From assembly GCF_013122565.1 (NCBI RefSeq), contig NZ_CP053258.1: 64,000 bases of DNA. One strand, given 5' to 3'. Positions 3,225 through 8,486 of the stretch are shown here, piece by piece. The notes beneath the pieces were generated by a model. The model did not search any database, had not been told where the DNA came from, and saw only the letters and a program-made list of their open reading frames with translations. Each line of letters starts with the position of its first letter. The stretch's first letter is position 1. Source of the DNA: Escherichia coli. Lineage in GTDB: Bacteria > Pseudomonadota > Gammaproteobacteria > Enterobacterales > Enterobacteriaceae. The position numbers and the translations under genes were made by a program.

Positions 3225-4178
<954 letters not shown>

Positions 4179-4380
4179 TTGCTGACAGATTTATCCGCTC
4201 CATCGCGGGCGGATAATCTCCCCTTCCCCAACTTTCTTCGTAACGCCTCGCAAATTTCTTGTCTTTCGCTGCAACGAAATAAAAAACCTCGGAAGCTGCT
4301 TTCCCGTTTCGTTTTTTGCCCCTCGCTTGTGCTGATGGCGTTTGCCAAAGTAGCGCCAACCAAATCAAGGAGCGAAACAG

Positions 4381-4821
4381 ATGGACAAGCAACGCGGTTT
4401 TACACTTATCGAACTGATGGTGGTTATTGGCATCATTGCCATTTTAAGCGCCATTGGTATTCCCGCTTATCAAAACTACCTGCGCAAAGCCGCACTCACC
4501 GACATGCTACAAACCTTTGTGCCTTACCGTACCGCCGTAGAGTTGTGCGCGCTGGAACATGGTGGATTAGATACCTGCGACGGTGGCAGCAATGGCATTC
4601 CCTCGCCTACCACCACCCGCTATGTTTCAGCCATGAGTGTGGCAAAAGGCGTGGTGTCGCTGACCGGGCAAGAAAGTCTCAATGGGCTAAGCGTCGTCAT
4701 GACGCCGGGTTGGGATAACGCAAACGGCGTCACCGGCTGGACGCGCAACTGCAATATTCAAAGTGACAGCGCATTGCAGCAAGCCTGCGAAGATGTCTTC
4801 CGCTTTGATGACGCCAACTAA
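4381..4821 (+). CDS. ppdD: prepilin-like protein PpdD (type IV pilin, cryptic)
   Basis: 146-aa ORF with class III signal/N-methylation motif (MDKQRGFTLIELMVVIGIIAILSAIGIPAYQNY). Confidence 0.9.
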   Translation: MDKQRGFTLIELMVVIGIIAILSAIGIPAYQNYLRKAALTDMLQTFVPYRTAVELCALEHGGLDTCDGGSNGIPSPTTTRYVSAMSVAKGVVSLTGQESLNGLSVVMTPGWDNANGVTGWTRNCNIQSDSALQQACEDVFRFDDAN

Positions 4822-4830
4822 GGAGCGGCA

Positions 4831-6216
4831 ATGAATATTCCACAGCTCACGGCCCTGTGTCTGCGTTATCAGGGAGTCTTGCTGGATGCCAGCGAAGAAG
4901 TGGTTCATGTTGCGGTGGTCGATGCCCCCTCACATGAGTTGCTGGACGCATTGCATTTCGCTACCACCAAACGTATTGAGATCACCTGCTGGACGCGCCA
5001 ACAAATGGAAGGTCACGCCAGTCGCACACAACAGACATTGCCCGTAGCTGTTCAGGAGAAGCATCAGCCCAAAGCAGAGTTGCTGACTCGAACGTTACAA
5101 TCTGCGCTGGCACAACGCGCGTCTGATATTCATATCGAACCAGCGGACAATGCCTACCGCATCCGCTTGCGTATCGACGGCGTATTGCATCCTTTACCGG
5201 ATGTTTCACCGGATGCCGGAGTCGCATTAACCGCCAGATTAAAAGTGCTGGGAAACCTGGATATTGCGGAACATCGCCTGCCGCAGGACGGGCAATTCAC
5301 TGTCGAACTGGCAGGAAACGCCGTCTCATTTCGTATTGCGACCTTACCATGTCGGGGTGGTGAAAAGGTGGTATTAAGGTTGTTACAGCAGGTGAGCCAG
5401 GCACTGGATGTTAACACGCTGGGAATGCAGCCGTTACAACTGGCGGACTTTGCTCATGCCTTGCAACAACCACAGGGACTGGTGCTGGTAACTGGCCCTA
5501 CCGGCAGCGGCAAAACGGTCACGCTTTATAGTGCCCTGCAAACGCTGAATACCGCTGACATTAATATTTGTAGCGTCGAAGATCCGGTTGAGATCCCCAT
5601 AGCCGGACTAAACCAGACGCAAATTCATCCGCGTGCCGGACTCACCTTTCAGGGCGTTTTGCGTGCGTTATTGCGCCAGGATCCTGACGTCATCATGATC
5701 GGAGAGATCCGCGATGGCGAAACGGCAGAAATTGCCATTAAAGCCGCGCAAACCGGTCACCTGGTGTTGTCTACCCTACACACTAATTCCACCTGCGAAA
5801 CGCTGGTACGTTTACAGCAAATGGGAGTCGCCCGCTGGATGCTCTCATCAGCGCTTACGCTGGTAATAGCCCAGCGTCTGGTACGTAAACTTTGCCCACA
5901 TTGTCGCCGCCAGCAAGGGGAGCCCATCCATATTCCAGACAATGTATGGCCGTCGCCGCTGCCCCATTGGCAGGCACCCGGTTGTGTACATTGCTACCAC
6001 GGTTTTTATGGTCGCACTGCCTTATTTGAAGTTCTGCCCATAACACCGGTCATACGTCAGCTTATTTCCGCTAATACCGACGTTGAATCGCTGGAAACGC
6101 ACGCCCGACAGGCGGGTATGCGAACGCTTTTTGAAAACGGCTGCCTGGCCGTGGAGCAAGGTTTAACCACCTTTGAAGAGTTAATCCGCGTACTGGGGAT
6201 GCCGCATGGCGAGTAA
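4831..6216 (+). CDS. hofB: type IV pilus assembly ATPase HofB (GspE/PilB family)
   Basis: 461-aa ORF with Walker A motif GPTGSGKT and C-terminal tetracysteine motif. Confidence 0.9.
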
Positions 6217-7408
6217 GCAACTCTGGCGCTGGCATGGCATAACCGGCGACGGCAATGCGCAAGATGGGATGCGATGGGCAGAGAGCCGTGCTTTGCTGCT
6301 CATGGCACTACAGCAACAGATGGTTACTCCACTAAGCCTGAAGCGAATTGCTATCAATTCTGCGCAGTGGCGAGGAGATAAAAGCGCGGAAGTCATTCAT
6401 CAACTGGCGACGCTACTTAAAGCCGGGTTAACGCTTTCTGAAGGGCTGGCTCTGCTGGCGGAACAGCATCCCAGTAAGCAATGGCAAGCGTTGCTGCAAT
6501 CGCTGGCGCACGATCTCGAACAGGGCATTGCTTTTTCCAATGCCTTATTACCCTGGTCAGAGGTATTTCCGCCGCTCTATCAGGCGATGATCCGCACGGG
6601 TGAACTGACCGGTAAGCTTGATGAATGCTGCTTTGAACTGGCGCGTCAGCAAAAAGCCCAGCGTCAGTTGACCGACAAAGTGAAATCAGCGTTGCGTTAT
6701 CCCATCATCATTTTAGCGATGGCAATCATGGTGGTTGTGGCAATGCTGCATTTTGTTCTGCCGGAGTTTGCCGCTATATATAAGACCTTCAACACCCCAC
6801 TACCGGCACTAACGCAGGGGATCATGACGCTGGCAGACTTTAGTGGCGAATGGAGCTGGCTGCTGGTGTTGTTCGGCTTTCTGCTGGCGATAGCCAATAA
6901 GTTGCTGATGCGCCGCCCGACCTGGCTTATCGCGCGGCAGAAATTGCTGTTACGCATCCCGATTATGGGTTCACTGATGCGGGGACAAAAACTCACGCAG
7001 ATCTTTACGATTCTGGCGCTGACTCAAAGTGCAGGCATTACTTTTTTACAGGGCGTAGAGAGCGTCAGAGAAACAATGCGCTGCCCGTACTGGATGCAAC
7101 TTCTGACACAAATCCAGCACGATATCAGTAACGGTCATCCCATCTGGCTGGCGTTAAAAAATGCCGGTGAGTTTAGCCCGCTCTGTTTGCAATTAGTGAG
7201 AACGGGAGAGGCCTCCGGCTCGCTGGATCTCATGTTAGACAACCTCGCCCATCATCATCGGGATAACACAATGGCGCTGGCGGATAACCTAGCAGCCTTA
7301 CTGGAACCGGCGTTGCTGATCATAACGGGAGGAATTATCGGTACGCTGGTGGTGGCGATGTATCTGCCAATTTTCCATTTAGGCGATGCGATGAGTGGGA
7401 TGGGATAA
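6206..7408 (+). CDS. hofC: type IV pilus inner-membrane platform protein HofC (GspF/PilC family)
   Basis: 400-aa ORF overlapping the hofB stop; polytopic membrane protein. Confidence 0.9.
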   Translation: MASKQLWRWHGITGDGNAQDGMRWAESRALLLMALQQQMVTPLSLKRIAINSAQWRGDKSAEVIHQLATLLKAGLTLSEGLALLAEQHPSKQWQALLQSLAHDLEQGIAFSNALLPWSEVFPPLYQAMIRTGELTGKLDECCFELARQQKAQRQLTDKVKSALRYPIIILAMAIMVVVAMLHFVLPEFAAIYKTFNTPLPALTQGIMTLADFSGEWSWLLVLFGFLLAIANKLLMRRPTWLIARQKLLLRIPIMGSLMRGQKLTQIFTILALTQSAGITFLQGVESVRETMRCPYWMQLLTQIQHDISNGHPIWLALKNAGEFSPLCLQLVRTGEASGSLDLMLDNLAHHHRDNTMALADNLAALLEPALLIITGGIIGTLVVAMYLPIFHLGDAMSGMG

Positions 7409-7436
7409 CGCTGGCGTGTTGCTCCACACCAGCGTT
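7407..7436. terminator. bidirectional hairpin between convergent hofC and guaC
   Basis: Inverted repeat aacgctggcgtg / cacaccagcgtt (one G-U position) with 6-nt loop between the two stop codons. Confidence 0.45.
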
Positions 7437-7442
7437 GGAAGA

Positions 7443-8486
7443 TTACAGGTTGTTGAAGATGCGGTTTTCTTGTTCCTGCACACGGATAAATGTGGTGCGC
7501 TTGGTCAGTTCTTTCAGGCGTGAAGCCCCAACGTATGTACAAGCTGAACGCAGGCCGCCCAAAATATCACGCGCGGTATTTTCAACCGGGCCTCGCAGCG
7601 GCAGCTTAACGGTTTTACCTTCTGCTGCGCGATATTCCGCAACGCCGCCAACGTGACGTTTCATCGCAGACTCGGAGCTCATGCCGTAGAACAGCATAAA
7701 TTTCTCGCCGTTCTCCTCAACGATGCGACCGCCGCTCTCTTCGTGGCCCGCCAGCATGCCGCCAAGCATGACGAAATCGGCACCGCCGCCAAAAGCTTTC
7801 GCGACATCGCCCGGCGTGGTGCAGCCACCATCGCTGACGATCATTCCGCCCAGACCGTGCGCAGCATCGGCACATTCGATTACCGCAGAAAGTTGCGGAT
7901 AACCGACGCCTGTTTTGACACGAGTTGTACAAACAGAACCTGGGCCAATGCCAACTTTAACGATATCGGCACCGGAGAGGATAAGCTCCTCACACATTTC
8001 ACCAGTCACTACGTTGCCAGCACAAATGGTTTTGGTCGGCCACGCTTCACGCGCTTTCGCAACGAACTGCACGAAGTGTTCGGAATAACCATTCGCCACA
8101 TCAATACAAACGAAGTTTAATGCCGGGTTCAGGTCGAGAATCTGTTTAGTTTTTTCGAAATCCGCATTTGACGTACCGGTAGAAACCATCACATGTTTCA
8201 GCACATCAGCGGAAGAATTGTTGATAAACGCTTGCCACTCTTCGACAGAATAGTGTTTATGCACAGCAGTCAAAATATCAAAAGAAGCCAGCGCAGAGGC
8301 CATAGAAAATGTGCCTACGGTGTCCATATTTGCGGCGATAATCGGCACGCCGGACCAGCTCTGACCTGAATGTTTGAAGGTGAATTGACGTTCCAGTTCA
8401 ACATCGGAACGGCTTTTAAGAGTGGAGCGTTTAGGGCGGATGAGAACGTCTTTAAAACCTAACTTCAGATCTTCTTCAATACGCAT
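7443..8486 (-). CDS. guaC: GMP reductase
   Basis: 347-aa ORF ([37 protein letters not shown]...), IMPDH/GMPR family. Confidence 0.95.

Follow-up and report, generated by a model that had tools for sequence, protein, structure and literature searches.

Do three adjacent genes of Escherichia coli, ppdD, hofB and hofC, encode the core of a type IV pilus, and are they maintained by purifying selection although silent in the laboratory? We addressed this in a 64-kb stretch of E. coli DNA (the window), which is colinear with K-12 from 57.9 to 121.9 kb. This is a textbook locus, and the worth of revisiting it lies in correct annotation rather than in discovery. Its products form the core of the apparatus credited with DNA uptake in E. 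coli and its relatives and provide an adhesin in EHEC, and the locus has been re-engineered to yield protein nanowires (bioRxiv 10.1101/856302). We conclude with high confidence that ppdD-hofB-hofC encodes the inner-membrane core module of the type IVa pilus specified by the E. coli chromosome, inherited vertically within the Enterobacterales; we found nothing in the window that contradicts this explanation. An earlier reading made from the sequence only had reached much the same interpretation of this already known, ordinary locus, and our results support it with small refinements.

Gene content of the locus

The open reading frame listing contains three genes on the same strand, all starting with ATG:

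4381–4821, plus strand: ppdD, major type IVa prepilin of 146 aa with a 6-aa leader, predicted to be cleaved after Gly6
4831–6216, plus strand: hofB, hexameric assembly ATPase of the PilB/GspE family, 461 aa
6206–7408, plus strand: hofC, polytopic inner-membrane platform protein of the PilC/GspF family, 400 aa

Only 9 nt separate ppdD from hofB, whose AAGGAG Shine-Dalgarno sequence overlaps the ppdD stop codon, and the end of hofB overlaps the start of hofC by 11 nt; translational coupling at these junctions is probable. The sequence-only reading had described a compact operon of pilin, PilB-type ATPase and PilC-type platform genes, and its coordinates match ours exactly. The Pfam search that it had proposed as a check returned all the expected domains, N_methyl, T2SSE and T2SSF, at scores that chance cannot account for.

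PpdD carries the class III (prepilin) signal that had been ascribed to it. Its N-terminus reads MDKQRG/FTLIELMVVIGIIAILSAIGI (the slash marks leader cleavage after Gly), with Gly-1, Phe+1 and Glu+5 in place (MDKQRG/FTLIE), and the GFTLIE motif from residue 6 leads into a hydrophobic helix at residues 9–27 (Kyte-Doolittle 2.72). The protein matches Pfam N_methyl (E=2.5e-10, 39.9 bits, cut-off 21.2), TIGR02532 (35.9 bits, cut-off 16.3) and the NCBIfam equivalog PRK10574 (269 bits, cut-off 138), and lies slightly below the cut-off of Pfam Pilin (21.6 bits, cut-off 22). Cysteines at mature positions 50/60 and 118/130 fit a globular pilin domain whose C-terminal region is bounded by a disulfide. 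The K-12 counterpart of PpdD is 100% identical, the mature PpdD sequence matches the subunit of the EHEC type IV pilus filament known by cryo-EM (PDB 6gv9) at 139 of 140 residues, and the full mature sequence also aligns to the NMR structure 6gms.

HofB covers Pfam T2SSE almost end to end (E=4.6e-147, profile positions 2–370 of 370) behind a shortened N-terminus that holds a partial MshEN domain (profile positions 24–86 of 90), and it exceeds the cut-off of its own equivalog, NF007755/PRK10436 (824 against 617 bits). The catalytic motifs comprise Walker A (GPTGSGKT at 222), the Asp box (EDPVE at 250), Walker B (VIMIGEIRD at 287) and the His box at 309, followed by two CxxC pairs, CPHC at 355 and CVHC at 385. 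Such a tetracysteine zinc motif marks assembly ATPases and is missing from retraction ATPases such as PilT. The nearest solved relatives are PilB proteins (5zfr, 5tsg and 3jc8, E~1e-104), matches to PilT-family proteins are far weaker (E 1e-36) and the pilT_fam score falls below its cut-off (181 against 319 bits), all of which bears out a PilB-type ATPase.

The platform protein was likewise correctly called PilC-type. HofC matches Pfam T2SSF in two stretches (E=8.7e-57, 190.9 bits in total) and the equivalog NF007861/PRK10573 (661 bits, cut-off 401), has three hydrophobic segments (about 167–185, 212–235 and 369–395) and finds its best PDB match in Myxococcus xanthus PilC (3jc8, E=6e-44). HofB scores below the PilB equivalog cut-off (TIGR02538, 487 against 676 bits) and HofC below those of PilC (197–207 against 700 bits), so the two proteins form a distinct enterobacterial subfamily. 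As HofB also scores below the GspE equivalog (TIGR02533, 457 against 630 bits), its sequence is best read as that of a PilB-like enzyme in a separate enterobacterial HofB subfamily, neither a strict PilB nor a strict GspE.

In RefSeq/PGAP, HofB is named GspE ('type II secretion system protein GspE'), a label that we consider misleading. HofB and HofC are 99.1% and 98.3% identical to the K-12 proteins. Residue A94 of HofB is strain-specific, with E in eight other E. coli, and the exact HofB protein is recorded for one E. coli genome only (QJU25528.1).

The complete type IVa pilus machine is not encoded together with these core genes. A prepilin peptidase, secretin, alignment proteins, minor pilins and a retraction ATPase are absent from the 64-kb window, no A24 peptidase follows hofC (convergent guaC is reached after 34 nt) and no other pilus genes are annotated in the colinear K-12 interval. 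As the cluster supplies three of the roughly 13 genes needed, a pilus is not buildable from it alone; K-12 holds the missing parts at separate loci (hofMNOPQ and ppdAB-ygdB-ppdC).

Control region and transcript boundaries

The following non-coding features surround the genes:

4187–4219, plus strand: stable hairpin close behind the nadC stop (4178), −16 kcal/mol, z=−3.9, equalled by 0 of 200 shuffles
4234–4255, plus strand: CRP-S (Sxy-dependent CRP) site TTCTTCGTAACGCCTCGCAAAT, assigned by motif, position and conservation
4269–4297, plus strand: candidate core promoter, with a −35-like CTGCAA (4269–4274), a 17-nt spacer and a −10-like GAAGCT (4292–4297)
4343–4351, plus strand: block TGnCAnAnT (TGCCAAAGT), invariant across 15 sequences
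4367–4372, plus strand: ppdD Shine-Dalgarno sequence AAGGAG, 8 nt 5' of the ATG, its GGAG core invariant in 15 sequences
7406–7437, unstranded: hairpin between convergent hofC and guaC, −17.8 kcal/mol, z=−3.0

The hairpin at 4187–4219 delimits the ppdD control region on its upstream side and is likely the 3' end or a stabiliser of the nadC transcript; having no T-run, it does not qualify as a classical intrinsic terminator. At the other end, the hairpin at 7406–7437 begins inside the hofC stop codon, close to the end of guaC (7443, minus strand), and is likely a two-way end of the hofC and guaC transcripts. A search for RNA families between 3900 and 8800 returned none at E≤1.

The 16-bp core of the CRP-S site (4237–4252, centre 4244.5) lies about 144 nt 5' of the ppdD ATG and has both diagnostic bases, C6 and G17, with a perfect right half-site and two mismatches in the left. 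It is the sole match to TGCGA-N6-TCGCA with two mismatches in the nadC-ppdD spacer; since such matches are not enriched across the window (34 observed, 48 expected), the evidence lies in its position. That position is kept across genera: in most of 23 related upstream regions the 16-mer with the highest score lies at −138 to −154, and the Serratia region contains a perfect match, TGCGAAGCCCCTCGCA. The site is unchanged from K-12, and the stretch from the nadC stop to the ppdD ATG differs from that strain at only four positions. A fragment shown to bind CRP by EMSA (PMC1635313) has primers that map to about 4167–4298 and thus encloses the site; the assignment draws on the motif, on where the EMSA primers map and on conservation.

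From the candidate promoter, ppdD transcription would start near 4304, so that CRP would sit at about −60. This class I geometry is consistent with the mechanism put forward in PMC1635313 and PMC6728893. Within CTGCAA, the TG.AA bases vary little or not at all in 15 Enterobacteriaceae, and the K-12 ppdA and ybaV promoters have CTG(C/T)AA 16 nt after the CRP-S core, as ppdD does (15 nt in hofM). A consensus sigma-70 scan of 4000–7700 found 0 promoters against 2.6 expected, as is expected of an activator-dependent promoter. A sigma-54 reading of CTGCAA was ruled out by eye, the GG at −24 being missing.

Several non-coding blocks are conserved over the interval from the CRP-S site to the ppdD ATG: CTGCAAC (4269–4275), GGAA..TTCC (4291–4305), a T-run (4313–4318), CCTCGC (4321–4326) and TGnCAnAnT, whose T4343, G4344, C4346, A4347, A4349 and T4351 show no variation among 15 genera-level sequences. 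The last resembles an extended −10 and might act as a second, proximal promoter with a start near 4358, or else as a leader element. In the ppdA, hofM and ybaV promoters, part of this layout reappears at a constant spacing from the CRP-S core. That the blocks form a second, undescribed control layer, either a docking site for Sxy or a repressor or an anti-Shine-Dalgarno leader, is a speculative idea with the odds well against it; if true, it might explain why pilus and competence genes are silent even with cAMP-CRP active. The blocks offer concrete targets for mutagenesis.

Of two RNA-level candidates in this region, one was rejected and the other found no support. A hairpin at 4290–4306, flagged on the minus strand by the consensus scan, had suggested a terminator or attenuator separating the CRP-S site from ppdD; the inverted repeat precedes the T-run on the plus strand, but the RNA folds only weakly (−5.7 kcal/mol, z=−0.37), and its counterparts from five other genera fold no better, so this candidate was rejected. 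A conserved leader structure or anti-Shine-Dalgarno helix was suggested by pairing of the T-run with the Shine-Dalgarno sequence in the single-sequence minimum free energy fold, where z is only −1.59; RNAalifold on 15 leader sequences (−0.47 kcal/mol, one compensatory change in seven predicted pairs) did not support a structure, nor did it reveal any RNA structure supporting the TGnCAnAnT block.

Conservation, synteny and selection

The locus was found in 5,424 of 5,426 complete E. coli genomes, annotated ppdD, gspE and hofC, with a best identity of ~99.3%, and the block was always 3,028 bp long in 39 full-length E. coli matches sampled widely among them. That modest identity had raised the suspicion of a Shigella origin, which was dropped because the exact HofB protein belongs to an E. 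coli genome; the lineage is simply one that this collection does not contain. Among 24 Enterobacterales loci examined, every one has the ppdD-hofB-hofC triplet, 21 keep the full order ampD-nadC-ppdD-hofB-hofC-guaC-coaE, and in 22 guaC fills the slot of pilD on the opposite strand. A non-enterobacterial gammaproteobacterium (locus L026) has pilA-pilB-pilC-pilD-coaE-zapD-yacG; it was chosen as comparator because two Pseudomonas-like loci (L068 and L079) proved to be other T2SSE systems without linkage to coaE and were set aside. It appears that pilD was lost from an ancestral pilABCD-coaE arrangement.

All three genes are under purifying selection, with dN/dS of 0.06–0.12 within E. coli and 0.04–0.08 against E. 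albertii. The dS of hofB and hofC (0.09–0.10) is about twice that of the flanks (0.044–0.048). PpdD is the most conserved of the three proteins across genera, with PpdD/HofB/HofC identities of 92/77/68% in Citrobacter and 84/64/59% in Kluyvera. Nine of ten sequences compared have all three genes intact; the exception is M70, a UPEC strain whose hofB is interrupted by a nonsense codon, which indicates that the system is dispensable in some lineages.

These values qualify the term 'cryptic', which the sequence-only reading had applied to the cluster: it holds in the sense that the genes are unexpressed in the laboratory according to the literature, and fails if it implies decay, since dN/dS of 0.04–0.12 is not that of a decaying relic.

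Expression and proposed working

For induction by Sxy and CRP, pilus assembly and HofQ-dependent DNA uptake we draw on published work, which agrees with the earlier description of the cluster as known but generally silent in E. coli (PMC1635313, PMC3330819, PMC2649431). In K-12 the ppdD transcript is undetectable until Sxy is over-expressed, which induces it 90-fold; induction is abolished in crp and cyaA mutants, so both CRP and cAMP are needed (PMC1635313). PpdD was made by none of 72 ECOR strains; the processed 15-kDa protein appears once sxy is induced, and DNA uptake depends on the HofQ secretin, part of the same machinery (PMC3330819). No type IV pili were seen in UPEC (PMC2649431), whereas EHEC does make these pili, named HCP (PMC2920817).

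In the working that we propose, ppdD transcription would require cAMP-CRP and Sxy (TfoX) at the weak CRP-S site ~144 nt upstream, and the operon would be silent in the laboratory because Sxy is scarce in ordinary growth. PpdD prepilin would enter the inner membrane, where GspO or PppA, encoded elsewhere, would cleave it after Gly6 and methylate Phe1. ATP hydrolysis by the HofB hexamer would act through the HofC platform to lift pilins from the membrane and add them at the filament base, with the minor pilins PpdA, PpdB, YgdB and PpdC priming the filament and HofMNOP with the HofQ secretin passing it through the envelope; K-12 encodes these partners at other loci. The induced machine may then take up DNA and, in some pathotypes such as EHEC, form adhesive pili, a split of labour that we infer.

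Alternative explanations

The alternative that survives best, though we think it unlikely, holds that the operon is selected chiefly for adhesion and virulence (a 'haemorrhagic coli pilus') rather than for DNA uptake, with Sxy/CRP-S control secondary. Immune and phage pressure usually drives rapid change in major pilins that are exposed and adhesive. PpdD shows the opposite of what adhesion predicts, being better conserved across genera than HofB and HofC. Long PpdD (HcpA) pili of EHEC O157:H7 do mediate adherence, invasion and cytokine induction (PMC2920817), and kidney colonisation by UPEC falls on loss of hofQ (PMC2649431); but the operon is a member of the conserved competence regulon and has its CRP-S site in commensals as well as in plant or environmental genera (see also PMC1635313), and roles in DNA uptake and adhesion can coexist.

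A functionless remnant of an abandoned pilus system would account for the lack of expression in 72 ECOR strains and K-12 under standard conditions (PMC3330819, PMC1635313), for the departure of pilD from the operon and the hofB pseudogene in M70, and for the doubled dS of hofB and hofC, as expected of weakly expressed genes. Purifying selection largely refutes this reading, to which we give next to no credence: dN/dS is far under 1 in all three genes, their frames are intact, and near-universal presence, constant length and the triplet in 24 Enterobacterales loci are joined by conservation of the CRP-S site and the other non-coding blocks. Sxy-induced processed PpdD and hofQ-dependent DNA uptake, both published (PMC3330819), also speak against it.

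Equally implausible is a part of a type II secretion system in which PpdD is a pseudopilin pushing out secreted proteins: the GspE label, the T2SSE and T2SSF domains common to both systems, a HofB match to solved GspE/EpsE nearly equal to that with PilB (E 1e-100 against 1e-104) and, as far as the summary in PMC2649431 goes, assembly of PpdD by the Klebsiella Pul system are outweighed by scores below the equivalog cut-offs of GspE, GspF (261 against 424 bits) and GspG (29 against 89 bits), by GspC/D/H-M genes not being adjacent, by a PpdD that, despite its weak Pilin match, is almost residue for residue the subunit of a type IV pilus filament of known structure, and by synteny with gammaproteobacterial pilABCD-coaE and partners, HofMNOPQ, that are PilMNOPQ homologues.

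Comparison with known systems

Among known systems, ppdD-hofB-hofC stands closest to the K-12 and EHEC locus (hcpABC; b0108–b0106 in K-12), which has the same gene order, lengths, 9-nt gap and 11-nt overlap. In K-12 it is likewise flanked by nadC and guaC, and differs from ours only in alleles; hofB and hofC DNA is 97.1–97.8% identical, and the changes are mostly synonymous.

With the type II secretion proteins GspE, GspF and GspG, the locus has in common the folds of ATPase and platform protein as well as a signal of prepilin type; it differs in falling under all Gsp cut-offs, in having no other gsp genes nearby and in encoding a true pilin as its filament subunit.

The pilABCD operons of other gammaproteobacteria (Haemophilus, Vibrio and the pilA-pilBCD of Pseudomonas) show the same order of pilin, ATPase and platform genes and the same motifs, with the coaE-zapD-yacG linkage common to the E. 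coli locus and the L026 operon, and control by CRP-S and Sxy as in Haemophilus (PMC1635313). Unlike those operons, the E. coli locus is without pilD and has guaC on the opposite strand in its slot, its HofB is about 100 N-terminal residues shorter than PilB, aligning to the PilB profile from position 167 onward, and its major pilin is unusually conserved.

Gene content and operon structure

The pilus genes lie on the plus strand and fill exactly the stretch proposed in the sequence-only reading, with nadC in the same orientation upstream and guaC convergent on the downstream side:

4381-4821, + strand, ppdD, pilin (146 aa)
4831-6216, + strand, hofB, assembly ATPase (461 aa)
6206-7408, + strand, hofC, membrane platform protein (400 aa)

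With a 9-nt gap between ppdD and hofB, a ribosome-binding site (AAGGAG) that overlaps the stop codon of ppdD and an 11-nt overlap between hofB and hofC, the layout is the compact three-gene operon that had been described.

The domains suggested for checking (N_methyl, T2SSE and T2SSF) are all present. PpdD matches Pfam N_methyl and, slightly below the cut-off of 22 bits, Pilin (21.6 bits); its sequence shows two Cys pairs, a hydrophobic helix at the N-terminus and, bearing out the proposed class III signal, G|FTLIE as prepilin cleavage motif. Mature PpdD and the subunit of the EHEC type IV pilus solved as 6gv9 are identical at 139/140 positions. HofB combines T2SSE (E=4.6e-147) and a partial MshEN N-domain with complete motifs (Walker A, Asp box, Walker B, His box and two CxxC), and HofC has two T2SSF repeats and three hydrophobic segments; the closest solved structures are PilB ATPases and Myxococcus xanthus PilC, respectively. 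The proposed PilB-type and PilC-type assignments thus hold by domain and solved relatives, although no PilB, GspE, PilC, GspF or GspG equivalog cut-off (NCBIfam) was attained by the three proteins. The cut-offs of their own equivalogs (that of HofB is named 'GspE' by NCBI) were all exceeded by wide margins. On these scores HofB and HofC resemble PilB and PilC but belong to an enterobacterial subfamily of their own. Identity to K-12 is 100% for PpdD, 99.1% for HofB and 98.3% for HofC. Clustering at 90% protein identity placed HofB (461 aa) and HofC (400 aa) in one cluster, so cluster-based counts need care.

Upstream region and Sxy control

The nadC-ppdD spacer (202 nt) differs from K-12 at four positions, none of them in its sole good candidate for a CRP-S (Sxy-dependent CRP) site. 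Two further blocks of the ppdD leader are invariant in the cross-genus alignment:

4234-4255, + strand, CRP-S candidate TTCTTCGTAACGCCTCGCAAAT, with the diagnostic bases C6 and G17
4321-4326, ppdD leader, invariant block CCTCGC
4343-4351, ppdD leader, invariant block TGnCAnAnT

CRP-S-like 16-mers are not enriched across the window, so the evidence for the candidate is its position. In most of 23 related upstream regions the best-scoring 16-mer sits at -138 to -154 relative to the ATG, a Serratia genome has a perfect TGCGA-N6-TCGCA core, and the candidate lies inside a DNA fragment with published CRP binding (Cameron and Redfield primers, PMC1635313). Sxy induces ppdD 90-fold, an effect lost in crp and cyaA mutants (PMC1635313).

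A consensus scan of 4000-7700 found no promoter, including no consensus sigma-70 core promoter for ppdD, and its six terminator-like matches are at chance level (4.7 expected from shuffles). CTGCAA, 16 nt after the CRP-S core, is kept across genera, and a CTG(C/T)AA block has the same offset in the K-12 ppdA and ybaV promoters and is one nucleotide closer in hofM. This pattern fits a candidate class I promoter with a weak -35 element, in which, we infer, CRP would sit near -60, in agreement with PMC1635313 and PMC6728893. The ppdD and ppdA promoters are also alike over about 60 nt, TTCTTCG..ACGCC...CTGCAACG..TAAA..CGGAAG.TGC (window 4256-4372; L091, K-12 ppdA), and in both an A-rich hexamer follows the CRP-S core at a distance of 27 nt. 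Attenuator and leader-structure readings of the upstream region were tested and found no support. The residual novelty is small and lies in these conserved promoter and leader blocks.

Expression and missing machinery

No prepilin peptidase, secretin, PilMNOP homologue, minor pilin or retraction ATPase was found in the 64-kb window, nor is any annotated in the colinear K-12 interval (57.9-121.9 kb); K-12 encodes these parts at other loci. Induction of sxy yields processed PpdD and hofQ-dependent DNA uptake, and without induction PpdD was detected in 0 of 72 ECOR strains (PMC3330819). EHEC does produce PpdD pili, named HCP (PMC2920817), and hofQ contributes to kidney colonisation by UPEC (PMC2649431).

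Selection and divergence

Nei-Gojobori dN/dS values, estimated on the window together with E. albertii and eight E. coli strains, place the pilus genes under clear purifying selection (0.06-0.12 among E. coli, 0.04-0.08 in comparison with E. albertii; 0.01-0.035 for the flanking nadC and guaC). Synonymous sites in hofB and hofC have diverged about twice as far as those of the flanks, consistent with weak expression. Occasional lineage-specific loss is shown by UPEC strain M70 (L085, NZ_CP080118.1), where hofB is an annotated pseudogene with a nonsense codon at position 380, and ppdD and hofC are intact. The cluster had been called cryptic, which stands as to silence in the laboratory but not as to decay; a better description is a laboratory-silent operon maintained by selection.

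In exposed type IV pili, the major pilin usually evolves fastest. Here the order is reversed, PpdD being consistently more conserved across genera than HofB and HofC (window against loci L002-L025 and L059), with PpdD/HofB/HofC identities of 92/77/68% in Citrobacter, 92/67/56% in Pseudocitrobacter and 58/44/39% in Yersinia. This suggests that the filament rarely meets immune or phage selection.

Distribution and locus history

The locus was already known, and our analysis confirms the original observation and supports its interpretation. The block, labelled ppdD, 'gspE' and hofC in RefSeq, is present in 5424 of the 5426 complete E. coli genomes and is exactly 3028 bp in all 39 full-length matches from a spread sample. 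The window runs colinear with K-12 at about 57.9-121.9 kb in the opposite direction, with identities of 97-98.6%; the nearest of the 5426 complete assemblies to its first 25 kb reaches about 99.3%, with none closer, and its exact HofB protein is recorded for one E. coli genome only (QJU25528.1).

Two insertions relative to K-12 were also observed. One of about 1.28 kb (51184-52460, between thiQ and yabI) carries a 326-aa ORF (51375-52355, + strand; Pfam DEDD_Tnp_IS110 and Transposase_20) that matches over its full length the IS621 transposase, an IS110-family 'bridge RNA' recombinase (PDB 8wt6, E=1e-218). The other, of about 1.5 kb (46183-47726, between sgrR and sroA/thiB), carries a 278-aa pentapeptide-repeat protein (46684-47520, - strand; Pfam PF00805, E=7e-21).

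All 24 enterobacterial loci examined (Escherichia, Citrobacter, Enterobacter, Kluyvera, Leclercia, Serratia, Dickeya, Brenneria, Erwinia, Pantoea, Yersinia, Edwardsiella and Tatumella) have the pilus triplet, and 21 have the whole order ampD-nadC-ppdD-hofB-hofC-guaC-coaE. The non-enterobacterial gammaproteobacterial locus L026 reads pilA-pilB-pilC-pilD-coaE-zapD-yacG; the gene between its pilC and coaE encodes a bona fide A24 peptidase. Given this order, the enterobacterial operon is best read as descending from an ancestral pilABCD locus from which pilD was lost and in which guaC has taken the pilD slot.
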